From: Escherichia coli | Lineage (GTDB): Bacteria; Pseudomonadota; Gammaproteobacteria; Enterobacterales; Enterobacteriaceae | NCBI RefSeq assembly: GCF_013315695.1 | Contig: NZ_CP054353.1 | Strand: one strand, 5' to 3' | DNA length: 64,000 nucleotides | Notes under the pieces: generated by a model | The model's input: the letters and a program-made list of their open reading frames with translations, nothing else | Told to the model about the DNA's origin: nothing | The model's database searches: none | Shown here: positions 40,784 through 52,212 of the stretch, piece by piece | Numbering within the stretch: the stretch's first letter is position 1 | Layout: every line of letters begins with the position of its first letter | Translations under genes and position numbers: made by a program

Positions 40784-40859
40784 GCCGATATAGCTCAGTT
40801 GGTAGAGCAGCGCATTCGTAATGCGAAGGTCGTAGGTTCGACTCCTATTATCGGCACCA
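40784..40859 (+). tRNA. thrW: tRNA-Thr (anticodon CGU), thrW-like
   Basis: 76-nt GCCGATATAGCTCAGTTGGTAGAGCAGCGCATTCGTAATGCGAAGGTCGTAGGTTCGACTCCTATTATCGGCACCA; cloverleaf arms, CGT anticodon, encoded CCA. Confidence 0.9.
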
Positions 40860-41024: not shown

Positions 41025-42239
41025 GTGAAACTCAATGCCCGTCAAATAGACACAGCCAAGCCAAAAGAGAAGGCTTACAAGCTGGCCGATGGTGGCGGTT
41101 TGTATCTCTTGGTAAAACCTAATGGAGGTAAATACTGGCGACTTAAATATCGTGTAGCTGGTAAAGAGAAGCTATTGGCACTAGGTGTTTATCCTGAGGT
41201 TACTCTAGCCGATGCTCGGGCAAAACGTGAAGATGCGAAAAGAGGTATCGCTGGTGGTATCGAACCGATGGAAGCGAAACGAGAGGAAAAGATTGCCCGG
41301 GAAACGCAGTTAAACAACACCTTCAAAGATATTGCCCTTGAGTGGCACAGCAGCAAATTAAAAAAATGGTCTGCTGGTTATGCTTCAGACATCCTCGAAG
41401 CCTTCAACAAAGATGTGTTCCCTTACATTGGCAAAAAACCCATCGCCGAAATCAAACCACTTGAACTTCTGAATGTGCTGCGTCGCATCGAGGGGCGCGG
41501 TGCTACAGAAAAAGCCAAAAAAGTGAGGCAACGGTGCGGGGAAGTTTTCCGCTATGCAATAGTCACTGGTCGCGCAGAGTATAACCCTGCACCAGACCTT
41601 ACTAGCGCGATGCAAGGCCATGAATCTAATCATTACCCTTTCCTTACAGCCAAAGAATTACCTGATTTTTTCAAGGCATTGTCCAGTTACTCAGGAAGCG
41701 CATTGGTTGTTATGGCGGCTCGTCTACTGATTATCACCGGCTTGCGGACTGGCGAACTACGTGGCGCATTATGGGATGAAATTGATTTCAACAAGGCTAT
41801 CTGGGAGATACCCGCTTCACGTATGAAAATGCGGCGGCCTCATATTGTGCCATTGTCTGAGCAGGCTCTTTCGCTTATTGGGAAGATTAGAGAAATAACA
41901 GGCAATTACCCTCTTATGTTTCCCGGGCGCAATGATCCAAGGAAAACAATGAGCGAGGCCAGCATAAACCAAGTGTTTAAGCGCATTGGCTACGCTGGAC
42001 GTGTAACTGGTCATGGGTTCCGGCACACTATGAGTACGATTTTGCATGAGCAGGGCTATAACACTGCGTGGATAGAAACGCAGCTCGCTCACGTTGATAA
42101 GAACTCAATTCGTGGCACATACAACCATGCGCAATATCTGGATGGAAGGCGGGAGATGCTTCAATGGTATGCCGACTATATGGATTCTCTCGAGCATGGC
42201 GGAAATGTGGTGCATATGGTGTTTGAAAAACACGCATGA
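41025..42239 (+). CDS. int: Tyrosine site-specific integrase (P4-type)
   Basis: 404 aa, GTG start with GGAGG SD; N-terminal arm-binding-type region (GGGLYLLVKPNGGKYWRLKYR) and C-terminal catalytic R-H-R-Y region (HGFRHT ... RGTYNHAQY). Confidence 0.85.
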   Translation: MKLNARQIDTAKPKEKAYKLADGGGLYLLVKPNGGKYWRLKYRVAGKEKLLALGVYPEVTLADARAKREDAKRGIAGGIEPMEAKREEKIARETQLNNTFKDIALEWHSSKLKKWSAGYASDILEAFNKDVFPYIGKKPIAEIKPLELLNVLRRIEGRGATEKAKKVRQRCGEVFRYAIVTGRAEYNPAPDLTSAMQGHESNHYPFLTAKELPDFFKALSSYSGSALVVMAARLLIITGLRTGELRGALWDEIDFNKAIWEIPASRMKMRRPHIVPLSEQALSLIGKIREITGNYPLMFPGRNDPRKTMSEASINQVFKRIGYAGRVTGHGFRHTMSTILHEQGYNTAWIETQLAHVDKNSIRGTYNHAQYLDGRREMLQWYADYMDSLEHGGNVVHMVFEKHA

Positions 42240-44371: not shown

Positions 44372-44546
44372 GCCGACAGGAACACCACAACCTCAAAAAC
44401 GCTACAAAGATGCCCACGGAGCACTCGTTACTGTCGAAAGCGTGTCTCACAACCGAGTGACGTTTTATCGCGACGGGTATCAATCGCCATGCGTACAACC
44501 GCTGGCGCGCTTCATGAAGGAGTTCGCGGAGGTTAACAAATGCTAA
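44364..44546 (+). CDS. Hypothetical small protein
   Basis: 60 aa from ATG at 44364 (ATGTTTAA overlap with the preceding stop). Confidence 0.3.
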   Translation: MFKPTGTPQPQKRYKDAHGALVTVESVSHNRVTFYRDGYQSPCVQPLARFMKEFAEVNKC

Positions 44547-45607
44547 CCGTCCAGAAGAAGATATTTTCACTGGCTGGTATGTCACCAAAATCCAGCAATA
44601 TGACAGCAAAGTCTGGCATTAATACAGCAGATACAAGCAAAGTTTATCATTTTCTGGTGGTAGGAGCGGATGCCTTAACTATGTCAGAAATTACGGTCGA
44701 TGGTGTTAGCGTTGAGAAGGTCAGCGGCTGCGCCAGAGAATTTCTGGTCGTAGATGGCTTTCTCTGCTCGCGTAGTGACTCCACAAAAACCTTCGTCCAT
44801 ACGCGCGACGTTAACGAAATGAGCGCGATGTATTGTGCATCTGGTGCTTCCAATACTGAGTTTTCGGAGTCCATAAAAAAGAGCTTGCCGTTATGCGGCA
44901 ACACGGTTTATGGTTATAAGGCACCTCATAAAACGGGTGCCGGGATTGGCGTCCTGAAAATTCTGAAGGCGACATATGACGCGCCGAGCGTCTTTTTTTA
45001 TGTCGTAGGTCTGACTCACCCATTTTTTGGGCGTTGGTGTATAATCCAGCGCCTTTGTCAATCAATGGTGGCTCAGGCGGGGGCTTCTTCGGAAGCGCCG
45101 GTATCCTTCAGAGCCGGTTACGCCAACCCTGTCTGGGCTACCACCAGCGAAATTGGCGTTTCCGGTGGTAGCGTAACCTGCTATCTGAAGGAGGCTGCCA
45201 CATGCTGGCTACTACCCCTACCCAAAAACCGCAATTTATCTGGATTATCGCCGCAGTTCGCCGCGATTGCCCGACAATTACCGCCAAAATTCATCATATT
45301 GCTGCCGAGTCTGAACGCGATGCTCGCCGTTCTCTGGTGCGCGATCACGTCTGCTTTTTTGCTGGTCGTATCCGCATGGAGGTGGCACATGATTAAAACC
45401 TACGATGTGCATATGGATCCCCTCGAACGCACAAGCCAGATCATCACACTGACAGAAGTGATTAACGACATTCTGGTGAGCAACTCTCCCTCACGAGACG
45501 AAAGGCTGAAGGCGTTACTCGCGATATTGGATCTCGCCGTTCGTGACGTTCATTTCCTGCTGGAAGGTGGCGAAATGCCAGGAAAAACGGGGGCAACCAA
45601 TGAATAA
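44540..45607 (+). CDS. Hypothetical ORF, possibly over-called or chimeric
   Basis: 355-aa open frame with heterogeneous composition; the only long open frame over 44.5-45.6 kb; its C-terminal part could be an independent small gene. Confidence 0.25.
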
Positions 45608-47219: not shown

Positions 47220-47583
47220 AAATGCAGAAATGGCGCTTAGCTCCGCAATCGGAGAGCAGGTGGCAAAGATTGCTGGTGCTGTGTGGATTCATAACCTTCA
47301 TTCTACTGGTGAAGAGAAAATGGCAATTCAGACGCCAGAGGGACGCACCATTACTACATCTCTGAAGCCGTCAGATGTTTGTGATCTGATTTGCGCATTC
47401 ATGTACCCAGCAATGAGGACTGTCCACGGCGATAAGTGGAAACTTGCGACAACCGCTGAATTTGATATGTGGCTAAACAATGATGGCATGCTGACTGATT
47501 ACGGAATAACCAAGTGGCAGATGCTGGTTAGCCATATCGCAAACGCTATAGACCACGTGGGGTACGGTGATGCGAAACATTGA
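47212..47583 (+). CDS. Hypothetical protein
   Basis: 123 aa; overlaps the primase start. Confidence 0.35.
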   Translation: MRENAEMALSSAIGEQVAKIAGAVWIHNLHSTGEEKMAIQTPEGRTITTSLKPSDVCDLICAFMYPAMRTVHGDKWKLATTAEFDMWLNNDGMLTDYGITKWQMLVSHIANAIDHVGYGDAKH

Positions 47584-50326
47584 TCTTATCCGTCAGGTTA
47601 TCAGTGCGTCTGAAAACAACTGGCCTCATGTGCTGGGCTGCCTGAACATAAATGTCCCTGACTCTCCGCGCCGTCATGCTCCCTGCCCTGCATGTGGGGG
47701 CAAAGATCGATTCCGGTTCGATGACAACGGGCGCGGTAGCTTCATCTGTAATCAGTGCGGCGCTGGTGATGGGCTGGATTTAATTAAACGCGTAAATAAC
47801 TGCGACACAACAGAGGCGGCGCTTCTTGCCGCTGATGTTCTGGGTATTGATTACCGGACAACGGAAACACCAGAAGCCACCAGCCAGAAACGGGAACAAC
47901 TGGAAACCGAGCGCCAGCGACGCGAACAGGAGCGCCTGAAAAGGGCAGAGAAGGACGAACAACAAAGACGGGATACGTTTTCCCGTCAGTTTGATGACAT
48001 GCGCAGAAAGGCTGTAAACGGCAAATCTGATTATCTGGTTGCGAAAGGGGTAGGTGATTTTACATTCCCCGTGTTGCCCGATGGATCTCTGTTGCTGGCG
48101 CTGGTGGATAAATCCGGCGCAGTCACAGCAGCACAGACTATTACATCACATGGTGAAAAAAGACTCCTGACAGGTTCAGCAAAGCGGGGGGCATATCACG
48201 CCATAAACGCGCCAGAAACAACACAGAGCATCTTAATCGCAGAAGGGCTGGCAACGGCATTATCTGCCCATTTAATTCGTCCAGAGGCGCTGACAGTGGC
48301 GGCGATTGATGCCGGGAACCTGTTATATGTCGCCCAGGTACTGCGGGATAAATTTCCTTCAGCACAAATCATCATTGCTGCGGATAACGACCACAGCGAA
48401 GGAAGACAAAACACGGGGAGAATAGCAGCAGAAAAAGCAGCTTTATCTGTTTCTGGATGGGTGGCATTACCCCCGACAGATCACAAAGCAGACTGGAATG
48501 ATTACCACCAAAAACACGGCATTAAATGCGCCACAGAAGCGTTCAATAAGTCAATGTACCAACCACAGGGTAATGGCGTGAAACATGAGCCACAGACCAT
48601 TGAGGGAAGCGATTTTAAGGTTATGGATACCGACCCACTGAAACCAAGAATAGAAAGCCGCGAGGATGGTATTTATTGGGTATCTCCGAGAGCTGACAGC
48701 CAGAGTGGAGAAATCATCAATAACGAAAGCTGGTTATGTTCTCCGTTAAGCGTTATCGGTACTGGCAGAGACGATAAAGACCAGTATCTCATTCTTCGCT
48801 GGCTGTCGTTTGGTTCTGAAACGCCGACAACCGCTGCCATTCCACTGGCTGATATTGGTGAACGTGAAGGATGGCGCACACTTAAAGCTGGTGGGGTAAA
48901 TGTCACGACCAAAAGCAGCCTCAGAGCAATACTGGCAGACTGGCTACAACGCAGTGGCTCTCGTGAATTGTGGCGTGTTGCTCATGCCACTGGCTGGCAA
49001 TGCGGAGCGTACATCATGCCTGATGGGGAAATCATCGGAACACCTGAAAATCCTGTGCTGTTCAGCGGGAGAAGCTCAGCCGCAGCCGGATATACCGTCT
49101 CAGGGAGCGCGAAAAGCTGGCGTGATAACGTGGCGCGTCTGGCCTTTGGTAACTATTCAATGATGACCGGGATCGGCGCAGCACTGGCAGCGCCATTGAT
49201 TGGGCTGGTGGGCGCTGACGGGTTCGGCATTCATTTCTATGAGCAGTCGAGCGCAGGTAAGACCACCACGGCAAACGTGGCGAGCAGCTTATACGGCAAC
49301 CCTGATTTACTGCGGCTGACGTGGTACGGAACCGCGCTGGGGCTGGCAAATGAGGCCGCCGCCCACAATGACGGACTAATGCCGCTTGATGAAGTTGGTC
49401 AGGGCGCTGATCCTGTCAGCGTTTCACAGTCTGCCTATGCGTTATTTAACGGTGTAGGGAAACTGCAAGGCGCTAAAGATGGTGGAAACCGGGATCTAAA
49501 ACGCTGGCGTACAGTGGCAATCAGCACCGGAGAAATGGATTTAGAAACATTTATCGCTACTTCCGGGCGAAAAACCAAAGCCGGGCAACTGGTGCGACTG
49601 CTGAATATTCCGTTGAGTAAAGCAGTACGCTTTCACGATTACCAGAACGGAAAACAGCACGCAGACGCACTGAAAGACGCTTACCAGCATCACCACGGCG
49701 CGTCCGGGCGTGAGTGGATTAAATGGCTGGCAGACCACCAGCAACAGGCTATTAAAACCGTTCGTGACTGCGAAAGCAGATGGAGAAGCCTGATCCCATC
49801 CGATTATGGTGAGCAGGTTCACCGTGTAGCCGCGCGATTTGCCATTCTGGAGGCCGCATTGTTGTTAGGCGAGGTTGTAACAGGCTGGGATGCTCAGACA
49901 TGCCGTGATGCGATACAGCACAGCTATAACGCATGGTTGCGCGAGTTCGGCACAGGTAACAAAGAGCATCAGCAGATTATTGAACAAACGGAGGCATTTC
50001 TTAATGCCTATGGGCTTAGCCGTTTTGCACCATTTCCATACAGCCCGGCAGATTTGCCCATCAAAGATTTAGCCGGATACCGTCAGCGTGGAGAACATGA
50101 CGAAAGCCCAATGATTTTCTACACATTCCCGGCCACATTTGAAAAGGAGATCGCATGTGGTTTCAACGCAAAACAGTTTGCTGAAGTGTTGAAAAAAGCC
50201 GGGATGCTAACCCCACCAAACAGCGGTCGTGGATACCAAAGAAAATCACCACGTATTCAGGGACGACAAATAAACGTTTATGTACTCAATTACCAGCCAG
50301 GAGATTATAACTCATCTGAAGAATGA
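47567..50326 (+). CDS. Satellite-type DNA primase/helicase (zinc-finger + TOPRIM + D5-like NTPase)
   Basis: 919 aa; N-terminal CPACGG...CNQCG zinc finger, TOPRIM-like region (ILIAEGLATALS), Walker A SSAGKTT in the C-terminal half. Confidence 0.8.
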   Translation: MMRNIDLIRQVISASENNWPHVLGCLNINVPDSPRRHAPCPACGGKDRFRFDDNGRGSFICNQCGAGDGLDLIKRVNNCDTTEAALLAADVLGIDYRTTETPEATSQKREQLETERQRREQERLKRAEKDEQQRRDTFSRQFDDMRRKAVNGKSDYLVAKGVGDFTFPVLPDGSLLLALVDKSGAVTAAQTITSHGEKRLLTGSAKRGAYHAINAPETTQSILIAEGLATALSAHLIRPEALTVAAIDAGNLLYVAQVLRDKFPSAQIIIAADNDHSEGRQNTGRIAAEKAALSVSGWVALPPTDHKADWNDYHQKHGIKCATEAFNKSMYQPQGNGVKHEPQTIEGSDFKVMDTDPLKPRIESREDGIYWVSPRADSQSGEIINNESWLCSPLSVIGTGRDDKDQYLILRWLSFGSETPTTAAIPLADIGEREGWRTLKAGGVNVTTKSSLRAILADWLQRSGSRELWRVAHATGWQCGAYIMPDGEIIGTPENPVLFSGRSSAAAGYTVSGSAKSWRDNVARLAFGNYSMMTGIGAALAAPLIGLVGADGFGIHFYEQSSAGKTTTANVASSLYGNPDLLRLTWYGTALGLANEAAAHNDGLMPLDEVGQGADPVSVSQSAYALFNGVGKLQGAKDGGNRDLKRWRTVAISTGEMDLETFIATSGRKTKAGQLVRLLNIPLSKAVRFHDYQNGKQHADALKDAYQHHHGASGREWIKWLADHQQQAIKTVRDCESRWRSLIPSDYGEQVHRVAARFAILEAALLLGEVVTGWDAQTCRDAIQHSYNAWLREFGTGNKEHQQIIEQTEAFLNAYGLSRFAPFPYSPADLPIKDLAGYRQRGEHDESPMIFYTFPATFEKEIACGFNAKQFAEVLKKAGMLTPPNSGRGYQRKSPRIQGRQINVYVLNYQPGDYNSSEE

Positions 50327-50350
50327 GCTTCTTCATGTGCGTAGAAAAGG

Positions 50351-50456
50351 TGTTGGTTCAGTTGGTTCAATTTGTAAAGAGTATTGTTTTATAAGGATTT
50401 TATTCTTTTTATTGAACCAACACTGAACCAACAACACGGTATTTTGAACCAACACA
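50351..50456. promoter_or_regulatory. Candidate replication origin: inverted clusters of TGAACCAAC iterons flanking an AT-rich spacer
   Basis: GTTGGTTCAGTTGGTTCAA (50352-50370) then ~42 bp AT-rich, then TGAACCAACACTGAACCAACAA and TGAACCAACACA (50413-50456); begins 25 bp after the primase stop. Confidence 0.5.
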
Positions 50457-50774
50457 ATGTGACTGAATTGATGCGCACAACACCTGGCTGGCATCAGAGA
50501 GTGTTTTACGAGACTTTCGTAAAATCCTGTGTACAAGGGCGTGACGTTTTTGAAAGTGAGCACTACGAAATTTTCGTAGTTCAGAAAACAGCCTCTGAGA
50601 AGTTGTTATGCCTGTTCAGCAAACCATCCGCATAGCTGATCGCGAATCAAATTACCAATGGAGCCAGAAGCAAGGGCAGAACTGAAAAGCGCCTGCCGTG
50701 AAGAGTAATGCGACACCATAAATATAGTTTTTAGAGTCCATAAAAAACCTGTCAAAACCTGACACACAGAACGA

Positions 50775-50806
50775 TGCCACCAGCTACTGAGCGGTGGCAT
50801 TTTTTT
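50775..50806 (+). terminator. Rho-independent terminator
   Basis: Hairpin TGCCACC-AGCTACTGAGC-GGTGGCA followed by TTTTTTT. Confidence 0.6.
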
Positions 50807-50901
50807 GTGCTATTTGTTTCATATTTTGCAATTACGATGATGAATATTGCGATTTGTGAAACTATAATAACTGTTGTTTTATACAGTTCTAAGGGGGCGT
50901 T

Positions 50902-51063
50902 ATGGCTATTTCAGTAAAGCCGGTATTGATAAGTGAGAAGCAAATGGAAGCGATAAAGAAAATTCAGGAAGAGCAGCGTAAAAAATCAGGAATTGGAGTA
51001 GCGCCAACTCTGCATGAAATTGCACGAGGGTTAATAGATAAGGCGCTGGCAGGCTGTATGTGA
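50902..51063 (+). CDS. Small ORF (53 aa) not in the ORF track; possible small DNA-binding protein
   Basis: ATG at 50902 with AAGGGGG SD 7 nt upstream; charged helical composition. Confidence 0.35.
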   Translation: MAISVKPVLISEKQMEAIKKIQEEQRKKSGIGVAPTLHEIARGLIDKALAGCM

Positions 51064-51079
51064 AAATGGATGGCATCGC

Positions 51080-51541
51080 ATGGAACTAAAATTTATTGAT
51101 AACCCTGTGCGATTACAGGCCTTTCTTAACGAGCCAGGCAATACCGAAAATATTGTTGAGCCGGGGCACACGTACTACATCAAGCCTGATGCGGTATATC
51201 TCGGCATCTACGAAGGATTAGTGCTGGCTGGCGTTCATGAAGTGCGTAACTTCTGGCATAGCGTTGTTGAATGCCATGCGGTGTACGACCCCGGATTCCG
51301 TGGTGAATATGCACTGCAAGGACATCGATTATTCTGCAAATGGCTTCTCGAAAACTCACCATTCCTTAACAGCATTACCATGGTTCCTGACACCACGAAA
51401 TACGGACGGGCAATTATCCGTTTGCTTGGCGCTACCCGTGTTGGTCATCTTGATGATGCTTATATCAGATGTGGTAAACCCGTCGGCGTAACGCTTTATC
51501 AGTTAACTCGGCAACAATATAAGGAATTCAGCGAATGTTAA
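51080..51541 (+). CDS. Hypothetical protein (candidate virion-associated protein)
   Basis: 153 aa; first of three tightly coupled same-strand genes. Confidence 0.4.
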   Translation: MELKFIDNPVRLQAFLNEPGNTENIVEPGHTYYIKPDAVYLGIYEGLVLAGVHEVRNFWHSVVECHAVYDPGFRGEYALQGHRLFCKWLLENSPFLNSITMVPDTTKYGRAIIRLLGATRVGHLDDAYIRCGKPVGVTLYQLTRQQYKEFSEC

Positions 51542-52212
51542 TTACCCATATAGCTTATAAACATCTCAATCGTGCCGTATACGAAAAAGGCGGTGATGGT
51601 GGTGCCTCTAAAGCTCAGGCGAAGGCCCAGCAGCAGGCAATTGATTTGCAGCGCGAGCAGTGGAATACGGTGATGAATAATCTCAAGCCGTATGCAGAAG
51701 TCGGATTGCCTGCTTTACAACAACTACAAGGACTGATGACTCTGGAAGGGCAGAATAAAGCCGCGAATGATTTCTTTGGTTCTGGTTTATATAAAACACA
51801 GGCAGATCAGGCCCGTTATCAGAACCTTGTCTCAGCAGAAGCTACCGGGGGGCTTGGCTCAACAGCTACCAGTAACCAGTTATCTTCCATTGCGCCCATG
51901 CTTTATAACAATTGGCTCAGTGGGCAAATGCAAAATTATGGAAACCTGCTAAATGTCGGGATGAATGCGGCATCAGGGCAGGCAACAGCAGGGCAAAACT
52001 ACGCCAATAATACCGGACAACTCTTGCAGGGGCTTGGCGCTATTCGTGCAGGTCAGGCGCAGCAGCCATCCAGTCTTGCGCGTGGTATTGGTGGGGCGGC
52101 ATCAGGCGCTTTAGCGGGTGCGCAACTTGGTTCCGTTGTTCCGGGTATAGGTAATGTCGCCGGGGCTATTGGTGGTGGGCTTATTGGTCTTGTTGGGGGG
52201 CTTGGATTCTAA
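51535..52212 (+). CDS. Hypothetical protein with Gly-rich hydrophobic C-terminus (candidate phage ejection/internal protein)
   Basis: 225 aa; Gln/Asn-rich middle, C-terminal GxxxG-rich tail (GIGNVAGAIGGGLIGLVGGLGF). Confidence 0.4.
   Translation: MLITHIAYKHLNRAVYEKGGDGGASKAQAKAQQQAIDLQREQWNTVMNNLKPYAEVGLPALQQLQGLMTLEGQNKAANDFFGSGLYKTQADQARYQNLVSAEATGGLGSTATSNQLSSIAPMLYNNWLSGQMQNYGNLLNVGMNAASGQATAGQNYANNTGQLLQGLGAIRAGQAQQPSSLARGIGGAASGALAGAQLGSVVPGIGNVAGAIGGGLIGLVGGLGF

Follow-up and report, generated by a model that had tools for sequence, protein, structure and literature searches.

A cluster of five 9-bp repeats (iterons) at positions 50352-50453 of the window, the whole 64-kb stretch of DNA analyzed here, very probably forms one unit (unit A) of the replication origin of an EcCIMP1-like Gram-negative PICI. 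On sequence grounds, the 918-aa protein encoded immediately upstream, Pri-Rep, very probably serves as initiator, helicase, and primase. The features on which this reading is based are as follows.

40784-40856, plus strand: tRNA-Thr, integration site and left end of the island, with the sole att core in the window, TCCTATTATC, at 40843-40852
41025-42239, plus strand: island integrase (PGAP annotation)
47570-50326, plus strand: Pri-Rep gene, 918 aa (PGAP CDS in the identical MSB1_4I record)
49940-50323, plus strand: encodes the last 128 residues of Pri-Rep (791-918), predicted to be the domain that recognizes the iterons
50333-50344, no strand: motif TCATGTGCGTAG (CACATGTG-like) in the interval between the stop codon and the left array, at the same position across iteron types (alignments and upstream sequences of 43 loci)
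50352-50369, minus strand: left iteron array of two abutting 9-bp iterons (plus-strand sequence GTTGGTTCA)
50370-50412, no strand: A+T-rich spacer between the arrays, the predicted melting and helicase-loading region (43 bp, 84% A+T)
50384-50396: spacer motif TTGTTTTATAAGG (also given as TTGaTTTATAAGG), recurring across iteron types
50413-50453, plus strand: right iteron array, three TGAACCAAC copies at 50413, 50424, and 50445, spaced by about one and two helical turns
50484-50493, no strand: motif CTGGCTGGCA, the right edge of unit A, recurring across iteron types
53641-54338, minus strand: IS1 truncating the island (by comparison with NCTC9040, L008, and EcCIMP1 of MP1, L077)
Unit B, the second iteron unit, inverted, in relatives: L008 28318-28438, L077 10736-10856, and L007 3992-4112

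The sequence TGAACCAAC was present in exactly five perfect copies in the window, all of them within the 102 bp of the cluster. Two contiguous copies lie on the minus strand (50352-50360 and 50361-50369) and three on the plus strand (50413-50421, 50424-50432, and 50445-50453), the latter with start-to-start distances of 11 and 21 bp. By chance, about 0.5 exact copies would be expected on both strands of 64 kb, and in 30 first-order Markov simulations of the window the maximum clustering of a 9-mer within 110 bp was two copies, compared to the five observed. The number of one-mismatch copies in the whole window was 17, which is not above chance, indicating that the signal consists of the exact clustered copies. 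These results confirmed the inverted 9-mer arrays around an AT-rich segment that had been described in the original prediction, except that the segment is 43 bp long and not 42 bp.

The repeats are located in a 575-bp intergenic gap without annotation, and the first iteron starts 25 nt past the stop codon of the primase-helicase gene (50324-50326). The inverted repeats have cruciform potential, with a fold z-score of -4.6. No DnaA box or IHF consensus was found in the iteron region, which fits a self-loading initiator independent of the host initiator. A DnaA-dependent origin of the plasmid type was rejected because these consensus sequences were absent, the iterons are 9 bp long and inverted, and the initiator is a helicase-primase. 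A scan of positions 50200-51100 found no sigma-70-like promoter, and the intergenic region holding the repeats had no match to an Rfam RNA family. Two ORFs running across the repeats (50333-50563 on the minus strand and 50384-50635 on the plus strand) are unannotated and were discarded as coding sequences, as conservation follows the repeats and not the codons. A full-text literature search with the iteron sequence returned unrelated primers and oligonucleotides only.

Pri-Rep consists of a Zn-ribbon/Toprim primase domain (residues ~7-361), a DUF927 helicase domain (~365-813), and a winged-helix-like C-terminal domain (~825-918), with Pfam matches to Zn_Ribbon_Prim, Toprim_3, and DUF927. Residues 7-361 were 33% identical to the primase domain of phage P4 alpha (E 2e-41), while residues 403-813 matched PDB 8tch, SaPIbov1 Rep (E 1.5e-11), and more weakly SCCmec Cch (5dgk). 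The NCBIfam Cch-type match scored 37 bits against a cutoff of 700. Judged from these alignments, Pri-Rep fuses a P4-alpha-like primase to a DUF927 helicase of the SaPIbov1-Rep/Cch type. It is identical to the EcCIMP1 primase at 913 of 918 residues.

The last 128 residues had 262 relatives among 1.84 billion representative proteins, and in the full-length proteins among the matches listed the domain was always at the C-terminus of a helicase-sized chain. The Cch helix-turn-helix family of Pfam (HTH_56) matched 14 of 59 aligned members of the C-terminal domain and, weakly, the window protein itself (E 0.14). Sequence-profile searches of the domain against PDB sequences gave nothing significant, and hhalign detected no relation to the C-terminus of P4 alpha. 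When few sequences, all close homologs, were aligned, the AF2 model had a pLDDT of <50 over the last 90 residues; it was superseded by one from a deeper alignment. As modeled, the C-terminal fold of the helicase-initiator appears to match that of SaPIbov1 Rep, with Foldseek E-values that were not significant. In these comparisons, Pri-Rep has the make-up of a SaPI-type initiator, a Rep-family helicase with a predicted winged-helix DNA-binding domain at its C-terminus.

To place the cluster in a wider context, one genome per bacterial species was scanned for the protein, which gave 64 loci, mostly in Enterobacterales, with 54-100% protein identity; iteron positions were compared at the 49 loci with a usable 3' end. 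In most of the 49 the cluster starts 22-48 nt past the stop codon, and in three at 5-7 nt. At two loci (L035 and L061) the array precedes the called stop codon, and both genes are frameshifted. Eight iteron types were distinguished, namely GAACCAAC, GAGACAAC, AACCCGT, GAACCGAC, AACCGAC, TTAGCCCA, AACCCAC, and TTATCCCA. Across these types the scaffold is constant: a leftward tandem array with a 9-bp period is followed by rightward iterons about 11 and 21 bp apart. The spacer measures 45 bp from core to core in 29 of 43 loci and has a mean A+T content of 78%, its sequence being otherwise variable. Among 25 species-level loci of the window type, the iteron columns were 90-100% conserved, and the spacer, the segments between iterons, and the third positions of upstream codons varied.

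The left array contains 2-7 copies in relatives and steps by 9 bp between strains. Two copies are present in the window and in strain B2.3, three in NCTC9040, MP1, and most other E. coli genomes, four in N12, and seven in a MAG of an uncultured Erwinia sp. A 136-bp query covering the cluster had matches in 567 of 5426 complete genomes, with a median of two matches among E. coli genomes. The two-copy allele of the window is in the minority (28 records at ≥99% identity, compared to 317 with a 9-bp-longer match). The MSB1_4I chromosome contains a second match to this query outside the window, which may belong to a further island or be a unit B that has moved.

Two E. coli strains indicate with which part of the island the iterons travel. 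Strain LR-33 carries a diverged homolog (~70% nucleotide identity) with ssb, not ejection genes, behind it. The six iterons of this strain have the same sequence and spacing as the window type, and its spacer sequence is unrelated. ETEC H10407 shares the sequence rightwards of window position ~50497, has a DUF5906 primase, and has no TGAACCAAC. These patterns show that the iterons accompany the primase-helicase and not the downstream cargo. The layout was also observed in phages. Klebsiella phage P12620-1 (106 kb) encodes a 71%-identical helicase followed by a compact TGAACCAAC origin of ~12 iterons (L078 4189-4500), and Pseudomonas phage phiAH14b (16.8 kb) encodes a 29%-identical helicase followed by the same layout with GGGGAAC iterons (L079 3883-4170). 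In Yersinia pekkanenii (L035), three iteron clusters of the window type, 4.6 and 1.2 kb apart, surround a disrupted primase homolog and may represent tandem or rearranged islands.

We further compared the iteron type with the protein sequence. At loci with other iterons, identity to the window protein drops selectively in the last ~80-85 residues; at one such locus it was 85% at residues 760-800 and 26% at residues 880-918. Identity over the C-terminal 84 residues was 0.71 for pairs with the same iterons and 0.61 for pairs with different iterons at a core identity of 0.8-0.9, and 0.68 and 0.49, respectively, at a core identity of 0.7-0.8. None of 2000 label shuffles reached the observed difference, a statistic that ignores phylogeny. 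The closest pair of types, GAACCAAC and GAGACAAC, differs by two nucleotides, and the corresponding proteins carry the patches GRGYQRKSPRI and GRGYQGRV-RE, respectively, in an otherwise near-identical domain. In the structural model, the putative specificity patch QRKSPRI (residues 890-896) is located in the hairpin before the last strand, which would be the wing. Only the helicase and its C-terminal region track the iteron type, even where the N-terminal primase domain has been replaced; no other island protein was present in all window-type loci, and several occur with other types as well. Pri-Rep is accordingly predicted, from sequence, to recognize its own iterons.

Taken together, the distance of 25 nt from the stop codon, the conservation, and the covariation with the C-terminus support the original prediction of an iteron-type origin that forms a replicon with the adjacent primase/helicase. 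The following sequence of events is conceivable. The C-terminal winged-helix domain of Pri-Rep would read the 9-bp iterons, as suggested by homology with SaPI Rep, and Pri-Rep protomers would assemble on both arrays, which point in opposite directions. Between these assemblies, the 43-bp A+T-rich spacer would be melted, and the DUF927 helicase would load itself as hexamers, needing neither DnaA nor a dedicated loader. The first primers would then be made by the N-terminal Zn-ribbon/Toprim domain, and the host polymerase would complete synthesis. In intact relatives, a mirrored unit B would complete a quasi-palindromic origin. We infer iteron binding, melting, self-loading, and present-day activity from homologs.

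The window was 100% identical to the chromosome of E. coli MSB1_4I, and the island is inserted at tRNA-Thr next to proA. Its genes are on one strand in the order integrase, small HTH protein (in the AlpA position), AntA/B antirepressor, "ash" ORF, several small ORFs, and primase-helicase. Within the 'ash family' ORF called by PGAP (44540-45607), Rfam identified isrK (44921-44998) and C4 antisense RNA (45061-45148), an immunity RNA module of the P4-CI kind, which Gram-negative PICIs have been reported to carry; the ORF call may be spurious. Downstream of the iteron gap there are a 53-aa ORF, P22-like head-morphogenesis and DNA-ejection genes, and then IS1. Published Gram-negative PICIs have the architecture int, alpA, Bro zone with immunity RNAs, pri, ori, and captured late genes, and the island agrees with this layout in its unidirectional int, alpA, pri, ori, and late genes, its specific att, and a size within the range of ~10-20 kb. 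EcCIMP1 is 19,963 bp long, is integrated at the same site, and is excised and transferred by the P22-like phage Kapi1, and the att core, locus, and gene order of the window island are those reported for it (PMC11773190). A search of PMC11773190 by terms found no description of the EcCIMP1 origin.

The island has been cut to ~12.8 kb by IS1. It lacks attR, and its ends are not intact, as a single att core (40843) was found in the 64-kb window; the second iteron unit, perC, and attR, which intact relatives have beyond this point, are missing. Two IS1 copies are present in the window (53641-54338 and 57143-57840), an ejection-protein gene of the island is frameshifted, and the neighboring ykg/ecp genes are disrupted. 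The single att core, the IS1 pair, and the broken genes suggest an IS1-mediated deletion or rearrangement. The element is therefore a truncated EcCIMP1-like PICI at tRNA-Thr, a remnant and not a complete PICI.

The late-gene cargo module begins at ~50497 in the window, where compact origins have a second iteron unit directly after CTGGCTGGCA. The leader of this module (~50497-50910) is shared at ~95% identity with islands that have another primase. It contains near-identical palindromes (TACGAnnnnnTCGTA) at 50507-50521 and 50564-50578, 57 bp apart. As the leader is common to islands with different primases, the palindromes are part of the cargo module, in which they are candidate operators. 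A terminator-like hairpin with a T-run (50774-50806) and an A+T-rich stretch precede the 53-aa ORF (50902-51063), which had no PHROG or NCBIfam match. Its homologs (43-79% identity) follow the origin in many relatives across iteron types. The DUF2824/head-morphogenesis and DNA-ejection genes at 51080-53630 showed ~91% DNA identity to Kapi1 (L073 27948-30429), which fits the capture of late genes from the helper.

Examination of the relatives revealed a further iteron unit, unit B, that the window lacks. The origin is compact in about 20 loci: the cluster spans 256-316 bp and unit B directly follows CTGGCTGGCA, with spaced iterons, a spacer, and an outward tandem triple, so that the whole origin is quasi-palindromic. 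In compact origins, a TTTTT...TATATA stretch lies between the outer tandem array and the next gene. The origin is split in about 12 loci, where unit B is 0.5-8.8 kb downstream. In NCTC9040 and EcCIMP1 (MP1), unit B is inverted and located 8.2-8.5 kb from unit A, on the far side of the ejection-gene cargo, ~37 nt ahead of perC, where it overlaps a TATATAAT-like element. An O111 strain has an orphan unit B beside perC and no primase. In about 15 loci from other species, unit A was found alone within a downstream flank of ~5-10 kb. The window cluster is probably a relic half-origin beside an intact initiator gene, and with unit A only, two left iterons, and no attR, this copy may be inactive. The original prediction, in which the two parts form the replicon of the element, is supported as regards the origin, but the copy observed here is probably a half-origin in a truncated island.

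It is possible, though we do not favor it, that unit A is an auxiliary site resembling P4 crr or one half of a bipartite origin, which binds the initiator and cannot fire alone because initiation needs or occurs at unit B. This reading refines the main explanation and does not exclude it. The mirrored second unit of the intact relatives, adjacent in ~20 and at 0.5-8.8 kb in ~12, is in its favor, as are the presence of both units in EcCIMP1 (MP1) and NCTC9040 and the median of two matches per E. coli genome. The validated EcCICFT073 origin also holds both units in compact form, and P4 requires both ori1 and crr, of which crr directly follows alpha. Since crr adjoins alpha and initiation nevertheless takes place at ori1, position alone does not prove a start site. 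On the other side, unit A has the full minimal layout of the SaPI type, in which two or more iterons flank an A+T-rich spacer on either side, and the ~15 loci with unit A alone argue weakly that A suffices, unless those elements have decayed too.

A further step, which we consider rather doubtful and which draws on the comparison of loci, is that origins of this helicase family are inherently bipartite, with separable mirrored units looped by the initiator and replication coupled to perC expression. The idea of a loop follows the precedent of P4 alpha with ori1 and crr. If this were true, the island in the window, having kept one half, would be replication-dead. In EcCIMP1-like islands, the whole late-gene cargo, with its P22-like ejection genes, would lie between halves 5-9 kb apart, and the distal half would overlap the promoter region of perC, the gene of a PerC-type virulence regulator. 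Neither a split origin nor coupling to perC was described in the PICI literature examined.

The very probable role of unit A in replication was also weighed against its being solely a transcriptional operator, used by Pri-Rep or some other regulator to control the late genes or perC or for autoregulation. Initiators often autoregulate, unit B is situated ~37 nt before perC over the TATATAAT-like element, and the TTTTT...TATATA stretch of compact origins separates the outer tandem array from the next gene. However, the distance between unit A and the helicase stop codon is constant whichever gene follows (ejection genes, ssb, or others), and in the window the next ORF is 450 bp away, with no sigma-70-like site in the scanned region. 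The iterons, moreover, covary with the C-terminal domain of the helicase-initiator, and the iteron type shows no co-occurrence with any other DNA-binding protein of the island. An operator without a role in replication is hence unlikely.

A site for packaging by the helper phage (pac) or for site-specific recombination is more improbable still. PICIs need helper packaging and the repeats could form a cruciform, but GAACCAAC does not occur in the genome of the helper Kapi1, on which ground a packaging site was rejected. The motif also tracks the helicase C-terminus and not the integrase or the late genes, and unrelated phages have the same architecture behind homologous helicases. Neutral tandem and inverted repeats made by slippage are scarcely credible, for although the 9-bp steps of the left array between strains show that slippage occurs, five exact copies stand against 0.5 expected in 64 kb, the iteron columns are conserved across species as the flanks drift, and position, spacing, and spacer length are kept across eight iteron sequences.

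Origins of this kind are already known, as SaPI and Gram-negative PICI origins are defined by exactly such an arrangement, and the general picture of satellite replication is unchanged. The origin of EcCIMP1-like islands appears to be new, with nothing on it in the papers examined or in the full-text search with the motif; so do the set of eight iteron specificities that share a scaffold, together with the candidate patch for specificity, and the compact and split origin forms. The result fills the origin gap for EcCIMP1-like islands, which are present in roughly a tenth of complete E. coli genomes. Many of the chromosomal copies, including that in the window, have decayed. The comparative set provides a natural experiment on how a self-loading helicase-initiator reads DNA, with eight specificities on one scaffold and a two-nucleotide iteron change paired with the swap of a short wing patch.

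Among known systems, iteron origins of plasmids (pSC101, R6K, RK2, P1, and F) have direct repeats of ~17-22 bp and a WH1-WH2 Rep (RepA/pi/TrfA), and rely on DnaA boxes, IHF, and host DnaB/DnaC. They resemble the window in that initiator sites lie by an A+T-rich unwinding element with the initiator gene adjacent; direct iterons of 17-22 bp, DnaA boxes, and a WH1-WH2 Rep were not found in the window. SCCmec Cch/Cch2 has remote sequence similarity to Pri-Rep and differs in its separate primase-polymerase, in a putative origin with direct repeats only, and in its Gram-positive host.

Phage P4 is closer in several respects. P4 alpha, like Pri-Rep, combines initiator, helicase, and primase in one polypeptide, with a homologous primase domain (33% identity), and the window island shares with P4 the C4/isrK immunity RNA. 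In P4, crr directly follows alpha and is an auxiliary site required in cis, whereas initiation takes place at ori1, 4.7 kb away. Like unit A, crr has tandem iterons with a 9-bp period, an A-rich spacer of ~40 bp, and inverted iterons. The P4 iterons are 8 bp long and occur in two separate clusters. They differ in sequence (TGTTCACC), and P4 has at crr a 120-bp direct duplication where the relatives of the window have mirrored units. No relation to Pri-Rep was detected in the helicase and C-terminal DNA-binding portions of P4 alpha; homology is confined to the primase domain, and Pri-Rep is not an initiator of the P4 alpha type.

In SaPIs, the C-terminal winged-helix domain of Rep binds opposed iterons immediately 3' of rep, at least two per side (PMC9371898); origin melting by Rep needs no ATP, and Rep self-loads, probably in the form of two hexamers. 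Autonomous replication driven by the initiator-origin segment has been shown for SaPIs as well as for EcCICFT073. The window agrees with SaPI and PICI origins in both position and arrangement: the cluster immediately follows the initiator-helicase ORF (by 25 nt, with homologous loci alike), and two minus-strand and three plus-strand iterons oppose each other across the A+T-rich center, where at least two on each side are expected (PMC9371898, PMC6092414). The SaPI origins (SaPIbov1 Rep, SaPI1 Rep, and PriRep5) have iterons of 5-6 nt, compared to 9 bp in the window, and the window origin further differs in its Gram-negative host, the fused P4-alpha Zn-ribbon/Toprim primase, and a strictly tandem left array with a 9-bp period. 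Its relatives, unlike SaPIs, have a second, mirrored unit added.

The nearest validated counterpart is EcCICFT073. In Gram-negative PICIs the origin is directly 3' of pri/rep and always has two sets of iterons around an A+T-rich region (PMC6092414). The pri-ori segment of EcCICFT073 drives plasmid replication (Fillol-Salom et al. 2018, PMC6092414), and deletion of its origin lowered but did not abolish colony numbers (PMC6092414). Its primase has 584 aa and no BLASTP similarity to Pri-Rep, its iterons are CTGTCTACC, and its adjacent second unit ends in an inverted tandem pair, whereas the window has unit A only. EcCICFT073 nevertheless has the same island architecture as the window island (int, alpA, pri, ori, and late genes), and its origin, like those of the window family, consists of a tandem pair with a 9-bp period, an A+T-rich spacer of ~40 bp, and opposed, spaced iterons.
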